Source: Ruminococcus sp.
GTDB taxonomy: Bacteria; Bacillota; Clostridia; Oscillospirales; Ruminococcaceae
DNA: 64,000 nucleotides
Assembly: GCA_031262625.1 (NCBI GenBank)
Contig: JAISHJ010000007.1
Span: 516-64,515, forward strand
Reading direction: 5' to 3'
Part shown: positions 3,594 to 47,330 of the stretch, one piece after another
Numbering within the stretch: the stretch's first letter is position 1
How the letters are laid out: each line of letters opens with the position of its first letter
The notes under the pieces: model-generated
What the model saw: only the letters and a program-made list of their open reading frames with translations
Database searches by the model: none
Told to the model about the DNA's origin: nothing
Made by a program: the position numbers and the translations under genes

Positions 3594-4790
3594 CTATTTC
3601 CCGCTCTCCCGTGCAATATAGAGTTCATATTGTGCTTGCGTGAAGAGGTCTGAGTACATTTCACCGAAAAGGTTTTTGTAATCTGCGGCTTTAATATTTA
3701 CAGCGGAGAGCGTGTAATTTCCACTCCCGTCGTAGACCGCAATCACCAGTGAGTCTGTAAACAGATATATAACATATTTTACATTTCCGCTGTCCGTAAT
3801 ACTAAGCTGAAACTCAATATCGGCACTGTTTATCTGTACAGTTGAATTTTTGGTAAGACTGCTCTTTATAATTTCTGCGGCGTTTCCGGCAAGAACCGTT
3901 GTTTTGTTATTGTCCAAAAATATCGCGGAATTGTCTTTGTAGCGCAAAAGCGCGTTGCAGTTTTCAAGGCTCATAAGTTCATATGCCCCGAATGCGTCGT
4001 AGCCTTCGCTGTTATCTATAGTAAATTCGCCGGCGTTTAGGACTTGCTCATCGCTTGAAGCAATAGTTATTTCAGAATCATATTCCATTTCTTCTGCGGA
4101 ATCTTCTTCACTTGCCGCATCATCCATTACGGTATCTTCATCACTTGCTGCATCATCAACAGGAGAATCTTCAATGCTTTCGGCGTCATCCGGTGCAGAT
4201 TCTTCTTTATTTTCAACAGCAGTCCGGGATGTTAATCCTGCCGCGGCAGTTTCAGCGACAGTAGTAACCGGCACATCTGCAACATCCGAATGAGCAGTTT
4301 TTTCTACAGTGACTGTATTAACCGCTGTTGTAACTATAGTTTCCGATGAAGCAGCCATAGTTTCGGGAATACCTGCTCCTAAAATCTGCGGCTCAGGCAG
4401 ACTTTCGGTATCAACAATCTCCGGGAGTGCCGCGAAGGGCGTAAATTCACCGATTTCTTCAATAATTTCGATAGAAGTTTCCTGCGAAAGGACAGTTATC
4501 TCCGGGATTTGAACTTCCGGCGCAGTTATATTCTCTGCTAAATCATTTTGCCGCATTACGAGATTAACGGTAAATACACAGAGAAAACACGCCGCAAGAG
4601 CAACCGAAATATTCCTGATAATATTATATCGCGGTCGGGAGGGTTCGATAATCTGCTCGGCTTGCCGTAACACTGTAATTTTCCCGGCCGCCTTAGCTTC
4701 TGACAGTGAAGCAACCGTTTTTGAAACAAAATCGGGAGAGAATTGTAAATTTTGCATTTCGGATTTGTAATCTTTAATATTTTTACTCAT
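3594..4790 (-). CDS. Putative membrane-anchored anti-sigma factor (single TM, acidic extracellular region)
   Basis: Its start overlaps the stop of the upstream ECF sigma gene by 8 nt. A short cytoplasmic N-terminus is followed by one TM (ISVALAACFLCVFTVNLV) and a D/E/S-rich region. There is no recognisable catalytic motif. The call rests mostly on context. Confidence 0.5.
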   Translation of the reverse strand: MSKNIKDYKSEMQNLQFSPDFVSKTVASLSEAKAAGKITVLRQAEQIIEPSRPRYNIIRNISVALAACFLCVFTVNLVMRQNDLAENITAPEVQIPEITVLSQETSIEIIEEIGEFTPFAALPEIVDTESLPEPQILGAGIPETMAASSETIVTTAVNTVTVEKTAHSDVADVPVTTVAETAAAGLTSRTAVENKEESAPDDAESIEDSPVDDAASDEDTVMDDAASEEDSAEEMEYDSEITIASSDEQVLNAGEFTIDNSEGYDAFGAYELMSLENCNALLRYKDNSAIFLDNNKTTVLAGNAAEIIKSSLTKNSTVQINSADIEFQLSITDSGNVKYVIYLFTDSLVIAVYDGSGNYTLSAVNIKAADYKNLFGEMYSDLFTQAQYELYIARESGK

Positions 4791-5286
4791 CTTCTATCCC
4801 TCCGATCATTGAATCTTTAAGAAGTTTACGCCCTCGTGCAAGCAGGGTTCCTACTGTAGCTTCCTTCTTACCGATTGCTGCGGCAATTTCTTTTATGGAA
4901 AGTTCGTTGTAATAAAATAGGTGTATAGGAGTACGGTATTTTTCCGGGAGAGCCATAACGGCTTCCAATACGGAGTTTTCCCCGGTGAAATTATCATCAA
5001 CCGCGCTGTCGGAAAGGGTTTCGTCAAGAGGAGTGCTGTGCCGTATCCAACCAGATTTCAGGTGATTTTTACATTTATTTATAGCAAGGCGTAAAAGCCA
5101 TGCTTTTTCATGTTCTTCAGACTCAAAAGGAATATCACGCTTAAGGAGCGACAAAAACACATCCTGAGTAAGGTCCTCAGCATCGGAGGAATTTTTTACA
5201 TAAGTAAAACAAAGCCTTAAAAGCGTGTCGGAATATTTAGCGACAGTTTGACTTATATATTCGTCCGTTCCGAAAACCGATGACAT
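4783..5286 (-). CDS. RNA polymerase ECF-type sigma-70 family sigma factor
   Basis: Region 2 reads DAEDLTQDVFLSL and AWLLRLAINKCKNHL. Region 4 reads LPEKYRTPIHLFYYNELSIKEIAAAIGKKEATVGTLLARGRKLL. The ATG at 5286 with a GGGGA RBS is preferred over the TTG at 5298 used by the track. Confidence 0.85.
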   Translation of the reverse strand: MSSVFGTDEYISQTVAKYSDTLLRLCFTYVKNSSDAEDLTQDVFLSLLKRDIPFESEEHEKAWLLRLAINKCKNHLKSGWIRHSTPLDETLSDSAVDDNFTGENSVLEAVMALPEKYRTPIHLFYYNELSIKEIAAAIGKKEATVGTLLARGRKLLKDSMIGGIEDE

Positions 5287-5445
5287 AGTTTTCCCCAAAA
5301 AATCAGCTCTGCGGAAGATTATTCCTGCAAATTTAGGAGCATTGCCGCAGTGAAATGTCTGCTTTTCACCGCGGTAAACTCCAAACCCACCGTTTTGCTG
5401 TTAATAATAAAACAATTCAAGAGAAGGATATTTTTCAAGTGCGGA

Positions 5446-5970
5446 TTAATTTTTAAATATTTTTTTAACGTCACTGCGGTCAATAGCAGAACCGATAGCA
5501 ATAAATATCAGAACGCCCGCCGCTTCCTGTATGAAATTAAACGGCAGGGACAAAAATGCGCCGTTTCCGTAGAGTATTAGTTCTGTCAAAAGATAGCCGC
5601 CCGCACCGATAACTGTCGATATTATACAAGCGATAATATTACGTAAGGTGATTATGTTAATATTATTCCTATAATCTGCCTTTTTAAATGGGAGTGTCAT
5701 TAACGCCTTAATTATTATCGTCGGGATAATATAAACGGGGTAACCGGCTATAATATCAGCCGCACCCGCACCGAGTGCGGAAGCCGCCGCGGCAAGCGGA
5801 GTCGGAAGGAGCACTGCCGCAAGAAATATCACGGCATCTCCGAGGTGCATAAACCCGAGAGGTCCGGGAACGCGCACGAATGCGGTTGCAACCATTATAA
5901 CAGCGGCAAAAACAGCCGCTTCAGCGTATGCTTTTATTCCAATGTCGGATTTTTTCTGCAAATATCTCAC
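5446..5970 (-). CDS. ECF-transporter substrate-specific (S) component-like membrane protein, possibly vitamin B6-related
   Basis: It is a 174-aa polytopic membrane protein containing VRVPGPLGFMHLGDAVIFLAAVLL and AGAADIIAGYP, typical of small ECF S-components. It lies immediately downstream of a pyridoxal kinase gene. It uses a GTG start with a weak RBS. Confidence 0.55.
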   Translation of the reverse strand: MRYLQKKSDIGIKAYAEAAVFAAVIMVATAFVRVPGPLGFMHLGDAVIFLAAVLLPTPLAAAASALGAGAADIIAGYPVYIIPTIIIKALMTLPFKKADYRNNINIITLRNIIACIISTVIGAGGYLLTELILYGNGAFLSLPFNFIQEAAGVLIFIAIGSAIDRSDVKKIFKN

Positions 5971-7154: not shown

Positions 7155-7541
7155 CGAACGAGTAAGCCTGTAAGCCGGGTTTTGTCGTGCGCGAACATCT
7201 ATCTTGTTTACGCGTCGCCGCGCAAATCGAGCCGTTCTGATGTATTCATACCGTCGGGCAGACGAGTTTATGCAAAACATAAACTGTATGAAAGAACACC
7301 GGGAGCAAAAGCCCCTGACGTTGCACCGGATAGGGTTTACAGCACCGCTCTCTCTCGGAGCGGCGGGTGAGCTCTTACCTCGCCTTTCCATCCTTACCGA
7401 AGCTTACGCTCCGGCGGTATATCTCTGTTGCACTTGCCCTGAGGTCGCCCTCGGCTGCCGTTAGCAGCTATCCATGCCCTTTGGTGCCCGGACTTTCCTA
7501 AGAAAGAATAAACTTTCCTCGTCCGCACAGCTTACTCGCAA
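7155..7541 (-). ncRNA. rnpB: RNase P RNA (rnpB), type A-like
   Basis: The minus strand reads GCGAGTAAGC...AGGAAAGTCCGGGCACCAAAGGGCA...GCAACAGAGATATACCGCC...GTAAGAGCTCACC...CGACAAAACCCGGCTTACAGGCTTACTCG. Both conserved P4 strands (GGAAAGTCCGGGC and ACAAAACCCGGCTTA) are present. The P1 termini pair (CGAGTAAGC/GCTTACTCG). The region is GC-rich and holds only junk ORFs. Confidence 0.9.
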
Positions 7542-37359: not shown

Positions 37360-37497
37360 ACCGCAATCCGATTGAAAGGTGTGCGGGCACCCCGGGGCAG
37401 AGTACCGTGAACCGTGTCAGGCGAGGAATCGAGCAGCACTAAGCGTGTCCGATGTGTCCGGCGGAATGCCCGTATACCTTTGAGTCGGATTGCAATA
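37360..37497 (+). ncRNA. ffs: Signal recognition particle RNA (small 4.5S-like form)
   Basis: A TTGCAA-N16-TATAAT promoter (37325-37352) precedes it. The molecule is one long hairpin whose ends pair: GCAATCCGA.../...TCGGATTGC, GTGCGGGCA/TGCCCGTAT. The apical domain IV motif is GTGTCAGGCGAGGAATCGAGCAGCAC (compare GGUCAGGUCCGGAAGGAAGCAGC). It occupies the conserved position upstream of dnaX-ybaB-recR. Confidence 0.8.
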
Positions 37498-41680: not shown

Positions 41681-41753
41681 TGGGATATAGCCAAGCGGTA
41701 AGGCAACGGACTTTGACTCCGTCATTTCGGTGGTTCAAATCCACCTATCCCAG
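41681..41753 (+). tRNA. tRNA-Gln (anticodon UUG)
   Basis: TGGGATATAGCCAAGCGGTAAGGCAACGGACTTTGACTCCGTCATTTCGGTGGTTCAAATCCACCTATCCCAG. The anticodon stem is ACGGA/TCCGT with loop CTTTGAC. A TTGACA-N17-TATAAT promoter lies at 41578-41606. Confidence 0.9.
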
Positions 41754-41774
41754 CTTCGGCAGATACTTTTACAT

Positions 41775-41845
41775 TGGGGTATCGCCAAGCGGTAAGGCAC
41801 CTGACTCTGACTCAGGCATCCGGGGTTCGAATCCCTGTACCCCAG
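41775..41845 (+). tRNA. tRNA-Gln (anticodon CUG)
   Basis: TGGGGTATCGCCAAGCGGTAAGGCACCTGACTCTGACTCAGGCATCCGGGGTTCGAATCCCTGTACCCCAG. The anticodon stem is CCTGA/TCAGG with loop CTCTGAC. Confidence 0.9.
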
Positions 41846-41853
41846 TAAATAAA

Positions 41854-41887
41854 ATCCTCGTAACCTTTCGGTTACGAGGATTTTTTC
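41854..41887. terminator. Bidirectional terminator shared by the tRNA-Gln pair and the convergent MCP gene
   Basis: ATCCTCGTAACC-TTTC-GGTTACGAGGAT, followed by TTTTTT and preceded by AAAA. Confidence 0.85.
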
Positions 41888-43578
41888 TAATTTACCTTGA
41901 AGACGTTTGCTTGTTCGGTCAGGTTTGATGAAGTTTCCTTTAGTTCCACCGACAGTGTATTAATTTTATCTATATCATTGAGGTTTGAAGCTAAGACATT
42001 GGAGAGGTTGTCAATATCGCGGTTTATTGACTCAATCGTAAGGTTGAGTTCCCTCATTTCGCTTGAAAGTTCAAGAATACCTGAATTAGAAGCCTTTACG
42101 TTGTCGGAAATCTTATCAAAATAGCTTTCAGCTTCCGAACAGACCGCCGCACCGGCAACGGCTTTCTCAATCGTGATGGAAATAAGTTTCTGACTGTCCT
42201 TAGCCGCCTGTGCACTCTTTGCGGCAAGGTTTCTGACTTCCTCCGCAACGACAGCAAACCCTTTTCCGTGAGCTCCTGCACGCGCCGCTTCAACCGAAGC
42301 ATTAAGTGCTAAAATATTGGTCTGAAAGGCAATATCGTCAATAAGCTTAATTACCGAGCCGATCTGCTGACCTGATTCTTTTATGTCCGAGACAGCGGAG
42401 GAGAGTTCCTCCATCTTTTGCTTGCCTTCATCGGTAACGTCAGCGGTTTTCATGCAGTTTTCAGCTTCAGTTTCAGCTTTTCCTGCAATGTTATTGATTT
42501 CTTTTTGGAAATCAGTTGTTGTTTCCTTAATAAGTCCGACAGAATGCACACCGTCATTTGCGTTTACGGTAAATTCTTCCGTTGCTCTGTCGAGGTCGTA
42601 TGTATTGCCGCCGAGGGAAGAAGCGTACGCGGTAATCTTTCCGATTAACTCGCGAAGGGATTTCTCCATTGCCGCAAGCGATTTTCCGACAATATCGTTT
42701 TGGGTCCGCACTTCAATCTCCGCAGTAAGGTCGCCGGAAGCTATCCGACTGATTTCGGAAGACTGTTTTTCGTCTACTTCAATAAGTGCGGCAAATGAGC
42801 GTTTAAGTTCTGAAATTTCGTTATTACCGGTGATTTCGGTGATTTTTACTCCGAAGTTTCCGGAAGCAATCGCCTTCGCGAAGCCTGTAAGTTCCTTTAT
42901 CGGCGCGGCAATTTTCCGACGGATTAACGCTGATATGACAATTATTTCAATAATAAGAAGAGCAATCGCACTCGCGGTGCTTACAATTACAAAACTCGAC
43001 ATTTCGTCGTAAACCTGTTCAATAGACATATCAAGTCCGACACCTGCGACAACCTTGCCGTCTGAATTTCTTACCGGAGCATATCCCGAAAGACACATTC
43101 CGTAATCGCCGCTGTCATATATTCCGCCGTGGTAATATTCGCCTCTGCCGATAACGGAATCGAATAATTCTGTATCGAAAACATCGGCGGAATCCTCTTC
43201 CCAAAAGGGAATTGTGCCGTCACGGTCGTCGGCGGACATATAGTAGTGGGTATTTCCGTCGTCGTCAACAGGCGCCATTACGTAAAGATAAATGGCGTTA
43301 TTTGCTTCAAGCGTAGCAAGAGCGTTGTCAAGGCTTTTTTTCTGTGCTTCCCAAGCCGATAATTTTTCGGGAGGAATTTCCCCTGCGGCGATAATTTCTT
43401 CCGCAAGATCGCCGTCAATAAATGCCGCCGCACTCATTGCGCACATTTCGGCGGTATACCCGACAGAATCAGTCTCCATATTATAAGATGCAATGGTTGT
43501 AATAATTATGAGCATCAAAGCAGTAAGAATAATAGCTCCCGCTGATATGACGGTTACCATTTTAGAAACTGAATTCAT
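41887..43578 (-). CDS. Methyl-accepting chemotaxis protein (Cache-like sensor, HAMP, MA domain)
   Basis: An N-terminal TM and extracellular sensor are followed by a second TM, a HAMP domain ([20 protein letters not shown]) and the signalling hairpin ([45 protein letters not shown]). Confidence 0.9.
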
Positions 43579-43766
43579 GTGCTTACCTCAAATTAAATAA
43601 AATATCTATAATTATTATATAATATTTTAATTTAAATGTCAAGTTTTTTTGTAATATAAACTATAAATTTATGTAACAAATTAAAGGAATAAATGCAAAT
43701 CCTAATAAAATACTAACAAAAATTTGATTGATTTTTGTTAATACTAAACAAATTTTGAATTAACTA

Positions 43767-43795
43767 TTGACAATCCCGCAAAATAATGTTATACT
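43767..43795 (+). promoter_or_regulatory. Near-consensus extended -10 promoter reading antisense into the recombinase gene, toward the switch and downstream operon
   Basis: TTGACA (43767-43772), then N17, then TATACT (43790-43795), with TGT immediately upstream of the -10 (TGnTATACT). It overlaps the recombinase stop codon. Confidence 0.5.
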
Positions 43796-44373
43796 GACTC
43801 GAAACCATAAGTCAGCTTTTTATAAGCAAGATTTTTATCTTCCTGCGTTATTCCGATGTATCGGCGTGTTATGGCGAAGGACGAATGGTTGTAGATATCC
43901 ATAATTACCGCAAGCGAAGCCCCTTTTTTCCAAAGGTGGTAACCGAAAGTCTTCCGGAGAGTGTGGCACGAAACGGGAACATTTACGCCGGCATTTTTCG
44001 CGGCAGTCTTTAGTATACGATATGCCTGAATACGGCTTATCGGGTGCGGACGAGTAGGGTGAGAAAATACATAGTCGTGAGACGCGGGCGAGGTTTCCTT
44101 AAACAGCATAATAAGGCAGTCCCGCAAAATCGGATTTACTGCTACGATTTTATGCTTTTTGGTCTTTTTTTCGATGATTTCAAATTCTGCACGGAGTTTG
44201 CCGGTCTCGAAATTATAAATATCTCCCCAACGCAGACGTAAAATATCGCTTATCCGAAGCGCTGTAAAGATTCCGAACTGAAAAAGCGCAAGGTTCCGGC
44301 GTTCTTTTCTCGAGGCAAAGTAGGAACAAATCATTTTAATCTGGCGTTTATCGCGGATGGGTTGCGTAGTCAT
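43789..44373 (-). CDS. Small (194 aa) catalytic-core-only tyrosine recombinase (invertase-like)
   Basis: The product contains RNLALFQFGIFTALRISDILRLRWGDI (catalytic Arg) and CHTLRKTFGYHLWKKGASLAVIMDIYNHSSFAITRRYIG (HxxR ... H ... Y). There is no N-terminal arm or core-binding domain. An AAGGAG RBS precedes it. Confidence 0.85.
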   Translation of the reverse strand: MTTQPIRDKRQIKMICSYFASRKERRNLALFQFGIFTALRISDILRLRWGDIYNFETGKLRAEFEIIEKKTKKHKIVAVNPILRDCLIMLFKETSPASHDYVFSHPTRPHPISRIQAYRILKTAAKNAGVNVPVSCHTLRKTFGYHLWKKGASLAVIMDIYNHSSFAITRRYIGITQEDKNLAYKKLTYGFESV

Positions 44374-44398: not shown

Positions 44399-44427
44399 AA
44401 TGTAACAGTTTTCATAAACTGTTACAT
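44399..44427 (+). repeat. Recombination site 1 (lox-like: inverted arms around an asymmetric core)
   Basis: AATGTAACAGTT-TTCATA-AACTGTTACAT. It is the exact 29-bp reverse complement of site 3 and lies 26 bp upstream of the recombinase start codon. Confidence 0.75.
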
Positions 44428-44452
44428 AAAAACACAAGCATGACTTGCATTA

Positions 44453-44481
44453 AATGTAACATATTTCATAATCTGTTACAT
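44453..44481 (+). repeat. Recombination site 2 (same orientation as site 1, three mismatches)
   Basis: AATGTAACATAT-TTCATA-ATCTGTTACAT. Its own arms extend to TAAATGTAACA/TGTTACATTTA. Confidence 0.65.
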
Positions 44482-44505
44482 TTAACAACTTTTCAAAGAT
44501 ATAGA

Positions 44506-44530
44506 ACAGGCGGTTTGCCTGTCTTTTTTT
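44506..44530 (+). terminator. Rho-independent terminator inside the putative invertible segment (plus-strand oriented in this assembly)
   Basis: ACAGGC-GGTTT-GCCTGT followed by CTTTTTTT. Confidence 0.7.
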
Positions 44531-44601
44531 ATTTTCCTGACGTTATTTGCGAATTAATTCAAATATTATGTAGGCTTAGGTATATACTAACACGGACAAA
44601 C

Positions 44602-44649
44602 GCCGTCAATGTAACAGTTTATGAAAACTGTTACATTGACGGCTTTTTT
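44602..44649 (+). terminator. Site 3 plus GC clamp plus T-run: recombination site doubling as a strong intrinsic terminator
   Basis: GCCGTCAATGTAACAGTTT-ATGA-AAACTGTTACATTGACGGC (19-bp stem) followed by TTTTTT. The inner 29 bp (44608-44636) are AATGTAACAGTT-TATGAA-AACTGTTACAT, which is the reverse complement of site 1. Confidence 0.7.
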
Positions 44650-44724
44650 GTGCTTATAGGGAATTATATTCTTATTATACACATATTTAGGAAATATGTC
44701 AAGTGAAATCTGGAGGATATAACA

Positions 44725-45543
44725 ATGGGAGCATTTATAATTCCGGATAACGAATTATATCATATGGCTAATAATCTTGAAAGTAGTTACGGATGGGGAC
44801 TATCAAACGAAACTGTTGCTAAAATACATCAAGGTATACTTTATATGCAAATCGTTCTCGGTTTACATAATTCTTCGCTTTACAGAAAAGCCATGGCAAT
44901 TAAAGAAAAAGAGTTTATGGACGAAGCGATAAATGTTAACCAAGAAGACAGACACAAACGTATCCGAAAAGTGAACTTTTGGTTCACTTTGTTATGGATA
45001 ACTGCAATTGTATCTTTATTCTTTGGTGTTATATTATCGTTATATAAACCTGCACAATTTCTCGGAGGAATAATTCTTCTGCTTTGTCTGTTATGTATTT
45101 TAGGTGCTATAGTAACCGCAATTATAAAGCTTATTCTTAAAGGCAGGGCAAAAAAAGACGAGAAAACAATTTCATATTACAACAGAAAAATATCAGAATT
45201 TAACCCGATGGATCTTATGAACTTATGTTCAAGAATTATCTATCTCAATATGCAATATGACTTTGATTTATCTGTGATATGTGATAAACTCGGAGTTTCG
45301 ACTTCAGCTATGCGTACGAATTTTAACAAGGCTTCCGGCGGCGGAAGTACATGGATTGGCGGTGGAAGTCTTGGTCTTGTAGGTCTTGGTCTCGGTCTGA
45401 CTGCAATCAGTAAACTAAATGCTGCTGAAAAAAATTCACAATTCAACAGCAGAATGCAAGTGCTTCAAAGTTATTTGTTTTACAATAACGTAGCTGAATA
45501 TTTTAATAACATAGAACAACAATTGTACTACAATAATAGATAA
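44725..45543 (+). CDS. Hypothetical membrane protein (two central TMs, Gly-rich C-terminal segment)
   Basis: A GGAGG RBS precedes it. The TMs are FWFTLLWITAIVSLFFGVILSLY and GGIILLLCLLCILGAIVTAII. The Gly-rich stretch is GGGSTWIGGGSLGLVGLGLGL. I recognise no family. Confidence 0.6.
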   Translation: MGAFIIPDNELYHMANNLESSYGWGLSNETVAKIHQGILYMQIVLGLHNSSLYRKAMAIKEKEFMDEAINVNQEDRHKRIRKVNFWFTLLWITAIVSLFFGVILSLYKPAQFLGGIILLLCLLCILGAIVTAIIKLILKGRAKKDEKTISYYNRKISEFNPMDLMNLCSRIIYLNMQYDFDLSVICDKLGVSTSAMRTNFNKASGGGSTWIGGGSLGLVGLGLGLTAISKLNAAEKNSQFNSRMQVLQSYLFYNNVAEYFNNIEQQLYYNNR

Positions 45544-45560
45544 AATTTTGGAGGATTATC

Positions 45561-45890
45561 ATGAAAAAAAGGTTTTTCGCAATTTTGGCAATGGTTTGTC
45601 TGACATTAATACTTTTGACTGCGTGCGGTGGACTAAGCGGTACATACATCTATGTCGGTGACAGTTACGGCATTTTAGGGAGCGAACTTGAGTTTGACGG
45701 AAACGAAATGAAATGGGGTTACAGTGTCACTAAATATAAAATCAAAGGCGATGAATTCAGACTGGTAGATTCAATATCAGAAATAAGGTTCAGCTATTCA
45801 AAAAAAGGGGATTCAATATTTATTGACGAAAATGAATATGCAAAGGAAGGCTCAGATCGCCATAAAGAATGGGAAGACGAGCAGGAATAA
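45561..45890 (+). CDS. Hypothetical small lipoprotein
   Basis: The signal peptide and lipobox are MKKRFFAILAMVCLTLILLTACGG. A GGAGG RBS precedes it, 17 nt after the previous stop. Confidence 0.6.
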   Translation: MKKRFFAILAMVCLTLILLTACGGLSGTYIYVGDSYGILGSELEFDGNEMKWGYSVTKYKIKGDEFRLVDSISEIRFSYSKKGDSIFIDENEYAKEGSDRHKEWEDEQE

Positions 45891-45927
45891 GGTCAGCAAT
45901 CTATAATTATATGAAAGGCATTTTACT

Positions 45928-46716
45928 ATGGATGAAAAAATTGAAGTTAAGGCTGTAGAAAAGACAGCTCCGGATGAACCCTCTTCCGTACCTAACGCAC
46001 AACCTACAGAACAACTTGCAGAAAAGCCTGTAGATAAACCAAAGCCTATACTTCCTCAAATAAAACCGGAAGAATCAAAGTCGTTTTTACTGCAATTTCT
46101 GAAAAATCCGGCAGCAGCACTTCAATCCGGTGCACTCGGCTTGACGGAATGTTTGATCACTTTAGGGGTTCGTACAATCGGTCTGGTCGTCTTAATGGTA
46201 TATTTCAAGTCTTTATATTTCGACTCGGAATATTCAGACTATTTCGGCGATATTTATAACGAGTATATTGGTATGAGCGGCGATTTTACAAAATCATACA
46301 CGCTTTTGTCCGGTGCGGCTGAAATGGTTATCTCGTTAACCCAAAATGAATACGTTGCAATAATTTTCGGCGGTTTATTCATGTCCTTGATGCTTAGCAT
46401 TGCTCTATACATATCATCTTTTCTGTTTGGCAAAATAATATTCAAAGGCAAAACAGAACCTAAAAAGGGTTTAGTTAATCTTTTTACAGGCATAGAATCG
46501 GCATTACTTCCATTTACAGTGTTGTTCTTAATTGCTGTTTTTGTAAATATGTTTTCGCCGGTTTTTGCAGTAATACTTTCTCTTATTGGTTTAATTTTCA
46601 GTATATGCGTTTGCTTTTCAGCTTATATGAAAATATTTAATATTGATATCAACAAGGCGGTGTACACATCAGTACTCAGCTTTTCAACACTGGCAATTAT
46701 TCTAACGGTGTTTTAG
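45928..46716 (+). CDS. Hypothetical polytopic membrane protein with Pro-rich N-terminal tail
   Basis: The N-terminus is PDEPSSVPNAQPTEQLAEKPVDKPKPILPQIKPEE, followed by about 5 TMs. The topology is loosely Yip1/DUF-like, but no motif was identified. Confidence 0.55.
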   Translation: MDEKIEVKAVEKTAPDEPSSVPNAQPTEQLAEKPVDKPKPILPQIKPEESKSFLLQFLKNPAAALQSGALGLTECLITLGVRTIGLVVLMVYFKSLYFDSEYSDYFGDIYNEYIGMSGDFTKSYTLLSGAAEMVISLTQNEYVAIIFGGLFMSLMLSIALYISSFLFGKIIFKGKTEPKKGLVNLFTGIESALLPFTVLFLIAVFVNMFSPVFAVILSLIGLIFSICVCFSAYMKIFNIDINKAVYTSVLSFSTLAIILTVF

Positions 46717-46927
46717 CCGTGATATTATAACAACGGCACAATAACCTTCAAATCCACCAGAGCAGGCACAGTAGCACTCTCTATCACAAGCGCAAACTAA
46801 GTTCAACATAATATTCAGTATTCATTCCAACAAAAAATGCCTCATATGAGGTATTTTTTGTGGTAATATACTGCTTAACGAAAATACAAACGCCCTGTAG
46901 TGAAGTACCACAGGGCGTTTTAGAGTA

Positions 46928-47330
46928 TGGAGATGACGGGAATCGAACCCGTGTCCGAGAACATTTCAGGAGGGTTTTCTCCGGGCGCAGCACCGATTCA
47001 AAGTTCCCGACAGCGAGGGTATCGGCACAGACCCTAACCGTCGGTAGCCTGTAATACGTTTTTCGGTTACAGGCGTATACCGAAAAACGTGGACTGCTTT
47101 TGTCTCGCCTGTCGGAAGCCGCAGTACTCAACCGATTTCAGACGCCGGGGGTTAAAAAACGCCCGGAACTGCTAACTTACGCACGGTTACCCGCGCAATA
47201 AGTTAGGCAGCCATTAACTGAGGTTGTTCGTCGTTTAAATTTATAAACGTAGCGCATCGTTTCGGAGATAAGCGCAATCCTCCGCCCGCTTACCCAACTT
47301 ACGCTTCCCCGTCGAAACCTTTACATCCCC
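46928..47330 (-). ncRNA. ssrA: tmRNA (ssrA)
   Basis: The minus strand starts GGGGATGTAAAGGTTTCGACGGGG and ends GGACACGGGTTCGATTCCCGTCATCTCCA. This is a tRNA-Ala-like acceptor with a G3:U70 pair. An internal tag-like frame reads ...AAC GAC GAA CAA CCT CAG TTA ATG GCT GCC TAA. A terminator hairpin ACGCCCTGT...ACAGGGCGT lies just downstream at about 46890-46920. Confidence 0.9.

Follow-up and report, generated by a model that had tools for sequence, protein, structure and literature searches.

The window analysed here, a stretch of 64 kilobases (kb) from Ruminococcus sp. (GenBank assembly GCA_031262625.1, contig JAISHJ010000007.1), contains what is probably a DNA inversion switch with its own recombinase. 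Site coordinates are given in the numbering of this full window. A gene for a small tyrosine recombinase (43789-44373, minus strand) is preceded by three short recombination sites, S1, S2 and S3, the outermost of which is inverted relative to the other two. The non-coding interior between the sites contains a predicted terminator (T1), a second predicted terminator (T2) is built around S3, and the locus is flanked by promoter-like sequences on either side (P_anti and P_out). Beyond S3, and divergent from the recombinase gene, begins a putative switched operon of three genes, orf272, orf109 and orf262 (44725-46716, plus strand).

The recombinase has 194 amino acids, of which residues 10-175 match the catalytic domain PF00589 (E 3e-26). 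This is the only domain, and the N-terminal core-binding domain is absent, which confirms the first-pass annotation of a tyrosine recombinase that adjoins the sites and consists of a catalytic core only. An alignment of 19 homologs shows no variation at the catalytic residues R40, K70/K73, H137-x-x-R140, H163 and Y172. An AlphaFold model of the protein (pLDDT 91, pTM 0.88) has XerA, IntI4, XerH, the core of lambda Int and Cre as its top fold matches in the PDB (Foldseek probability 1.00), with TM-scores of 0.63-0.67 against isolated catalytic cores. Two well-known families were rejected. With the NCBIfam models of XerA, XerD and XerC, the protein scores 68.6, 61.6 and 52.3 against cut-offs of 220, 329.6 and 335; as the equivalog cut-offs are not reached and the N-terminal domain is lacking, it is not considered a XerC, XerD or XerA protein acting at dif. 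Its scores with the FimB and FimE models (PRK09870 and PRK09871), 35.9 and 40 bits, are also far below the family cut-offs of 221 and 222. We describe it as a RecV-like invertase.

The three sites are 28-29 base pairs (bp) long, with 11-bp arms around the asymmetric 6-bp spacer TTCATA. The proximal site S1 (44399-44427) reads AATGTAACAGTT-TTCATA-AACTGTTACAT. The middle site S2 (44453-44481) has the spacer orientation and the 8-bp centre of S1, and is separated from it by a short segment (44428-44452) with a weak hairpin, CAAG..CTTG after A5, that is kept in the alignment with the related locus L010. The distal site S3 (44609-44637) is inverted relative to both and lies inside a longer hairpin. 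A pattern search of the 64 kb for ATGTAACA-N12-TGTTACAT found three occurrences with no mismatches and no further full sites, where ~0.27 matches are expected by chance even if up to three mismatches are allowed. S1 and S3, which are 181 nucleotides (nt) apart, are 100% reverse-complementary over 29 nt, and all three sites have the 8-bp centre TTTCATAA in common. The letters at 44399-44427, 44453-44481 and 44608-44636 are thus exactly as the first-pass annotation had written them; a repeat comparison confirmed its statement that S3 is the exact reverse complement of S1, and the shared core orientation of S1 and S2 was also found as described. Each site can be parsed in two ways: the arms have either 12 bp, leaving a 4-bp centre, or 11 bp, leaving a 6-bp spacer. 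When the distal site was compared with the reverse-complemented proximal site in 18 homologous loci, the smallest central block that the two had in common measured 6 bp, which favours the 11-6-11 architecture and so refines the asymmetric core with inverted arms that had been proposed from the window alone.

Loci encoding homologs of the recombinase were taken from public assemblies and their flanks were scanned for sites; a metagenome scan with the recombinase gave six loci, one of them useful. Nineteen loci, together with L009, which is cut at the contig start, form what we refer to as group A. They come from Oscillospiraceae, Family XIII, Synergistales bins and other sources, and each has two or three ATGTAACA-N12-TGTTACAT sites, all of which precede the recombinase gene, the proximal one at -30 to -75 and the distal one at -180 to -270. 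Three sites are found in the window, L010, L011, L102 and L027, and S2 of the window is identical to that of L010 at 29/29 positions. The module of sites and recombinase is kept beside homologs with 57-73% identity. The arm ATGTAACA hardly varies among 82 half-sites. The spacer block varies by locus (TTCATA, TCTATA, TTCGCA, TATCCA, TCTCAA and others), and in every one of the 18 loci compared the partner sites carry an identical spacer in inverted orientation. This comparison upholds the earlier view that these are target sites of the lox/FRT type. As S2 shares its 8-bp centre with S1 and S3, it should by the spacer rule be recombination-competent, and could serve as an alternative partner, as an accessory site, or as a promoter or operator.

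Comparison of the interiors shows that the segment between the sites is found in both orientations. In L010, whose recombinase is 69% identical to that of the window, the outer flank (...caaaaaagccgtca), which bears the promoter, and the recombinase gene are colinear with the window minus strand, whereas the interior is colinear with the plus strand, opposite to its flanks. The two interiors are 82% identical as reverse complements and 59% identical when compared directly, and 200 shuffles gave a null of 0.60 +/- 0.02 and at most 0.65; the conserved stretch between T1 and S3 (44531-44601) lies within this interior. The interior of L102 groups with L010 and that of L011 with the window, so L102 is flipped relative to L011. 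A separate pair, L031 and L048 from two Synergistales bins, is 85% identical as reverse complements and 52% directly. In these three independent comparisons, homology turns from colinear to inverted at the sites. The first-pass annotation had predicted inversion of the ~180-bp segment by S1 and S3 and had proposed a look for homologous loci assembled in the opposite orientation; with L010 and L102 flipped relative to the window and L011, and L048 relative to L031, between colinear flanks, the sequence comparison gives good support to the view that inversion of the S1xS3 type occurs naturally. Two further predictions fared less well. The nested S2xS3 inversion is not among the states seen, as four three-site loci show only the window state and the full S1xS3-flipped state. 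There was also no support for the ~54-bp deletion between S1 and S2. Such a deletion would be disfavoured by the short distance between the sites, and since the three-site layout is conserved, it is not a common outcome.

The invertible segment carries predicted terminators that depend on its orientation; these, like the flanking promoters and the likely target operon, had gone unmentioned in the first-pass annotation. T1 (44506-44530, plus strand) is a one-way intrinsic terminator inside the segment, with a 7-bp stem (44506-44522) that includes four GC pairs and is followed by T8. It faces away from the recombinase in the window, and its reverse side has only a poor U-tract. T2 (44602-44649, plus strand) is a junction terminator, in which the inner flank GCCGTCA, S3 and the outer flank TGACGGC form a perfect stem of 19 bp (44602-44643), eight of them GC pairs, followed by T6. 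It is present in the window orientation only. When inverted states were built in silico, the predicted folding energy of T2 changed from -35.5 kcal/mol in the window to -17.0 after S1xS3 and -20.7 after S2xS3 inversion, and after either inversion its U-run was detached or sequestered and T1 was turned towards the recombinase. Four states can be reached with three sites; T1 points outward in two of them and inward in two, and T2 exists in the assembled state only. In 10 of the 19 group-A loci (window, L011, L003, L092, L014, L024, L026, L027, L030 and L031), a strong terminator, internal or at the junction, points away from the recombinase. In three (L010, L102 and L048) it points towards the recombinase, which brings the loci with such a terminator to 13; these three are the loci classed as flipped. 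No terminator was predicted on the plus strand between P_anti and T1. A search of Rfam at a permissive threshold found no RNA family in the region, giving only meaningless hairpin matches.

Promoter-like sequences face the segment from both sides. P_anti (43767-43795, plus strand) is a sigma-70-type promoter, TTGACA-17-TATACT after TG, that matches at 11/12 positions plus the TG. Its sequence overlaps the stop codon of the recombinase, and transcription from it would cross this gene in antisense direction, heading for the switch and orf272. Equivalents at or just after the stop codon were found in L009, L010, L011, L102, L003, L092, L012, L013, L014, L017, L024, L025, L028 and L031. P_anti is thus present in all five loci of the closest subclade (window, L009, L010, L011 and L102) and in ~15 of 20 group-A loci, and an equivalent occurs in only ~1 of 64 relatives without an upstream switch. 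In L026, a perfect promoter directed outward is instead located between the start of the gene and the proximal site. The promoter scan listed no plus-strand promoter between 43796 and 44733, including just inside the 5' end of the recombinase gene, and no usable one between S3 and the start codon of orf272. We infer from these sequences that P_anti is the promoter of the switched operon. In the outer flank, P_out (44702..44674, minus strand) is a perfect TTGACA-17-TATAAT promoter (12/12) that reads through S3, the interior and S1 into the recombinase gene. Its position is kept in L010 (TTGACT-17-TACAAT), L011 (TTGCAT-17-TATAAT) and L102 (TTGCTT-17-TATAAT).

The putative operon starts with orf272 (44725-45543, plus strand), a membrane protein gene with a good ribosome-binding site, followed on the same strand by orf109 (45561-45890), which encodes a lipoprotein, and orf262 (45928-46716), which encodes a multi-pass membrane protein with a weak Yip1 match. 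A gene beyond the distal site could be judged in 18 of the 19 group-A loci, and in 18/18 it is divergent from the recombinase (binomial p ~4e-6), and therefore in the path of outward transcription. The products of these divergent genes are lipoproteins, membrane proteins, RCC1-repeat proteins with SLH domains, TadZ, a 317-amino-acid protein that precedes an RHS/YD toxin, and proteins of the transglutaminase-like, ankyrin, LytTR and ABC-permease types. A surface or secreted protein is often encoded. The product of orf109 is homologous to that of the first divergent gene of L011 (E 2e-19). We considered orf272 as a conserved cargo and rejected it, as it has no homology to the divergent genes of L010 or L011.

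We hold it reasonably likely that the locus is a self-contained inversion switch of the RecV/cwpV kind, in which the recombinase flips the 180-bp terminator segment and thereby gates the neighbouring operon. The recombinase, presumably specific for these sites, would bind the 11-bp arms of S1, S2 and S3 and carry out strand exchange within the 6-bp spacer that the sites share. The interior (44414-44622) would be inverted if S3 recombined with S1; S3 could also recombine with S2. In the assembled state, the operon orf272/orf109/orf262 would be OFF because both T1 and T2 face transcripts from P_anti, while transcripts from P_out would cross the non-terminating side of T1 and make the recombinase gene transcribable. 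In the flipped state, T2 would be dismantled and T1 reversed, so that outward transcription would reach the operon (ON) and P_out transcripts would be stopped at T1 before the recombinase gene. As P_out would be blocked by T1 only when the segment is flipped, the supply of recombinase would depend on orientation. Both this ON/OFF polarity and the choice of the promoter that feeds the operon are read from sequence and are to be taken as predicted.

Assembly breaks at the sites were also examined. In an independent assembly, that of SRR14710920 in Logan (L001 and L002), one contig ends at 44480 in S2 and another starts at 44621 at the S3 spacer, and the 140 bp between them are absent from both. 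On their opposite sides, both contigs stop at graph branches, one in a tRNA gene and the other in the transfer-messenger RNA (tmRNA) gene. A graph simulation with k=31 of a mixture of the assembled and S2xS3-inverted states predicted ends at 44471 and 44619, 9 and 2 nt off, and none of the other mixtures of the four states fitted the ends better. As the exact ends were not reproduced by simulation, we rejected these breaks as proof of mixed orientations and do not count them as evidence. Among the related loci, public contigs L057, L089, L009, L075, L022 and L013 start at or within ~80 nt of the proximal site; L089 begins at the first base of GTAAC and L057 begins 6 nt before its site. These starts may be assembly breaks from mixed orientations.

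Several observations weigh against the switch as we have described it. The two orientations come from different genomes and not from within one population, and ten contigs from different samples that carry one identical homolog (P0011) all have the same orientation. The Logan contigs break inside S2 and S3, yet not exactly where any simple mixture predicts. Six of the 19 group-A loci have no clear internal terminator, and L010, which is presumed to be ON, still has a weak outward hairpin followed by T5. P_anti lies ~930 nt upstream of orf272, and a long untranslated leader, possibly subject to Rho, would therefore be required. In L011 and L092, reasonably good promoters directed outward lie immediately beyond the distal site, and there the operon may be independent of P_anti. 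P_out is clear in the closest subclade only.

Some of these points recur when other explanations are weighed. The main output could be a promoter inversion of the fimS type, with the terminators merely insulating. The candidate is a promoter-like TTGAAA-17-GATTAT sequence that overlaps S2 (44496..44468, that is 44468-44496 on the minus strand). Its -10 box GATTAT is made by an arm variant that is specific to S2 and shared with L010 (29/29), where the equivalent reads TTTACA-17-GATTAT. The sequence points towards the recombinase in the window; neither S1xS3 nor S2xS3 inversion would disrupt it, and either would turn it towards orf272; several other group-A loci also have inward promoter-like sites in their interiors. 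However, the match is 9/12 only, of which ~6.6 are expected per 1.5 kb, the sequence is not kept in L011 or L102, and the most conserved feature of the interior is the terminator. We therefore regard promoter inversion as an unlikely main output. It is in any case compatible with a terminator switch and predicts the same ON/OFF assignment, and as the S2-overlapping promoter would turn to orf272 after either inversion, it would add to the same output. A similarly improbable alternative is that the switch mainly toggles the recombinase through P_out gated by T1, and that the recombinase acts in trans elsewhere, with the operon not being its target. A perfect promoter does face the recombinase gene, blocked by T1 in the flipped state only, and RecV, also a small recombinase, serves several switches in trans (PMC12282940). 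This would, however, leave unexplained the divergent gene in 18/18 loci, the conserved P_anti and the outward junction terminator. In addition, the 64-kb window holds no further full sites, P_out is not evident outside the closest subclade, and the locus-specific spacers together with several recombinase paralogs per genome argue for dedicated pairs in cis.

The remaining two explanations do without a regulatory inversion. If the sites served integration, excision or dimer resolution of a mobile element or replicon (dif-, res- or att-like), this would fit with the homologous small recombinases on 2397 Firmicute plasmid records and 227 phage records, the single palindrome upstream of a homolog on a Clostridium botulinum plasmid, and the tmRNA and tRNA genes that flank the region. 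Yet the outer sites are inverted and not direct, which gives inversion rather than excision, and the interior is seen in both orientations. The plasmid and phage relatives are at most 46% identical, and no repeat of the 3' ends of the tmRNA or tRNA genes bounds the region; this explanation is very unlikely. Still less credible, to the point of being nearly discounted, is that the palindromes are only repressor operators or RNA hairpins and terminators that do not recombine. S3 does form part of a terminator-like hairpin, S2 overlaps a promoter-like site, and recombinase bound at the sites could also repress transcription. But homology switches from colinear to inverted exactly at the sites in each of the three independent comparisons, the asymmetric spacer is identical and inverted between partners in 18 loci while the arms vary, and the sites always accompany an intact recombinase.

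Among known systems, the closest to the proposed terminator switch is RecV/cwpV of Clostridioides difficile. RecV lacks the N-terminal DNA-binding domain found in most members of its family, and its proposed site consists of a 13-bp motif, a 6-bp spacer and the inverted motif, with a spacer code in which partner sites carry the same spacer in inverted form and each switch has its own (PMC12282940), a rule that the 18 loci compared above also follow. The window recombinase is likewise small and without this domain, and its sites also have inverted arms and a 6-bp spacer that necessarily matches between partners. Compared with RecV by motif and description, the window arm AATGTAACAGTTT agrees with the published degenerate motif AWAGTWNCCNTTW at 11 of 13 positions, whereas the GTAAC motifs are 14 bp apart in the window as opposed to 16. 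For cwpV, an intrinsic terminator that forms at the inverted-repeat junction in one orientation only was proposed as the mechanism (PMC2784873). As in cwpV, the invertible segment of the window is ~180-195 bp long, non-coding and located in what is presumably the leader, a junction terminator is present in a single orientation (in silico for the window), and the targets, putative in the window, are surface proteins. Unlike in RecV/cwpV, the window recombinase is encoded in cis beside its own switch, and its gene is nested in antisense orientation within the stretch from the presumed promoter to the switch. The sites number three rather than two, an internal terminator accompanies the junction terminator, and a second promoter would make transcription of the recombinase orientation-dependent. 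Thus, the cis-encoded recombinase, the three sites, the antisense nesting, the second, internal terminator and the proposed reciprocal gating are apparently new relative to RecV/cwpV. We found no earlier account of this cis-encoded, three-site, antisense-nested layout in the literature searched, which is not proof of absence.

Other switches share single features with the window. In the fimS/FimB/FimE system of Escherichia coli, a tyrosine recombinase of ~200 amino acids is also encoded beside its switch and its expression depends on orientation, and orientational control of fimE via a terminator in fimS has been summarised (PMC2784873). However, fimS carries the fimA promoter, whereas the conserved cargo in the window is a terminator, and the fim recombinase genes are co-directional and upstream of the switch, while the window gene is antisense within the leader. 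Cre/loxP and FLP/FRT also have two inverted binding arms and a short asymmetric, directional spacer, and inverted sites lead to inversion. They differ in site architecture (13-8-13 versus 11-6-11 in the window), in context (phage or plasmid maintenance versus a chromosomal regulatory switch) and in the recombinase, which lacks the N-terminal domain in the window. Rci shufflons have more than two sites with one spacer and several states, of which four are possible in the window. Shufflons, however, use a full-length recombinase to reshuffle coding parts of a pilus tip protein, whereas the segments of the window (25 and 126 bp) do not code for protein and only two of its four states have been observed. 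We therefore rejected shufflon membership, as despite the three sites both segments are non-coding. Hin of Salmonella is a serine recombinase that needs Fis and an enhancer, and the window recombinase, unlike hin, is encoded outside the invertible segment. A likeness to Hin is found in relatives from Lachnospiraceae, which hold both the recombinase gene and a flagellin promoter inside the invertible segment.

These relatives, which we refer to as group B (Lachnospiraceae, Eubacterium and Agathobacter), have two inverted ATGCAACA-N13-TGTTGCAT sites that bracket the recombinase gene and a conserved, sigma-28-like promoter (TAAAG/TTAAG-N15-CCGATAT). Examples are L044, L022, L029, L064, L078, L041, L086, L070, L037 and L059, among others. 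A flagellin gene lies ~400-900 nt beyond one of the sites; in L044, the sites are at ~2881-2905 and 3656-3680 and the flagellin gene is at 4071-5552. Of 80 loci, flagellin gene and promoter are co-directional (ON geometry) in two and divergent (OFF geometry) in 24, and thus both states of the switch occur in public assemblies. From its sequence, the group-B layout appears to be a phase switch for flagellin akin to that of Hin, with a tyrosine recombinase as its invertase. No earlier account of flagellin inversion in Lachnospiraceae was found in the literature searched, which does not prove that there is none. The window itself has a lone half-site ATGTAACA at 43671-43678 (plus strand), beyond P_anti and ~110 nt past the recombinase stop codon, with no partner arm. 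At +695 from the recombinase start, it is in the same place as the downstream site of the Lachnospiraceae relatives, and is a possible relic.

The recombinase belongs to a very large clostridial family of proteins of ~190 amino acids, with 7922 of 8000 scored candidates at E <= 1e-10, and an identical protein is on record from a metagenome-assembled genome (MAG) of Ruminococcus sp. Several MAGs have two or more small-recombinase paralogs on separate contigs (L056/L062, L035/L081, L046/L077, L065/L082 and L075/L089), which suggests several independent switch modules per genome. The small recombinases on plasmid and phage records are 40-46% identical to the window protein. The C. botulinum plasmid homolog mentioned above (L104, pRSJ19_1) has one palindrome ~200 nt upstream and no inverted pair; we rejected it as an example of the same arrangement, as a single palindrome makes for a different layout, and such a plasmid recombinase probably has a different job, for instance multimer resolution.

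To our knowledge, phase variation in clostridia is known almost only from C. difficile, with one recombinase for several switches. It is possible, and we advance it as a tentative proposal, that the ~190-amino-acid recombinases of gut Clostridia represent a large unrecognised class of self-contained cassettes with their own promoter, invertase and spacer-coded sites, which would provide modular stochastic control of an adjoining operon. In the Oscillospiraceae type, an antisense-nested invertase with a two- or three-site double terminator would gate both a surface-protein operon and the invertase, and the Lachnospiraceae sister design would be a Hin-like flagellin switch. This would place dedicated switch modules in many uncultured gut and rumen Clostridia, often several per genome, next to lipoprotein, S-layer-type, RHS-toxin, Tad-pilus and flagellin genes. 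Reference assemblies would then capture one of two expression states of such surface antigens, mostly the presumed OFF state, and contig breaks beside these genes may be biological rather than technical. The design would be compact, as one inversion would reciprocally gate operon and recombinase by means of a terminator part of which is put together across the junction. The flagellin type of switch could be relevant to the display of Lachnospiraceae flagellins to the host immune system.

Another set of contig ends was seen in the loci that encode P0011 (L092-L099; at least nine samples, two assemblers). These contigs all end within ~55 nt of each other, at +1403 to +1456 from the recombinase start and inside the gene downstream of the recombinase. 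The shared end may be a sign of a further region that is repeated or variable. In these loci, the products of the divergent operon are a 317-amino-acid protein and an RHS/YD-shell protein of 1827 amino acids.

Finally, the genes around the locus include a methyl-accepting chemotaxis gene (41887-43578, minus strand) on the far side of the recombinase gene. A second perfect TTGACA-17-TATAAT promoter lies just upstream of it (43614-43642, minus strand), so the chemotaxis gene has its own promoter and need not depend on the switch. The switch and the operon are bordered by two tRNA-Gln genes on one side and by the 3' end of the tmRNA gene on the other. An integrated island at these genes was rejected, as neither the tRNA nor the tmRNA ends recur as direct repeats at the borders of the region. 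Signal recognition particle RNA and RNase P RNA are also encoded in the window, in which RNA genes are located at 46925-47330 (minus strand), 41681-41846 (plus strand), 37382-37477 (plus strand) and 7155-7538 (minus strand).

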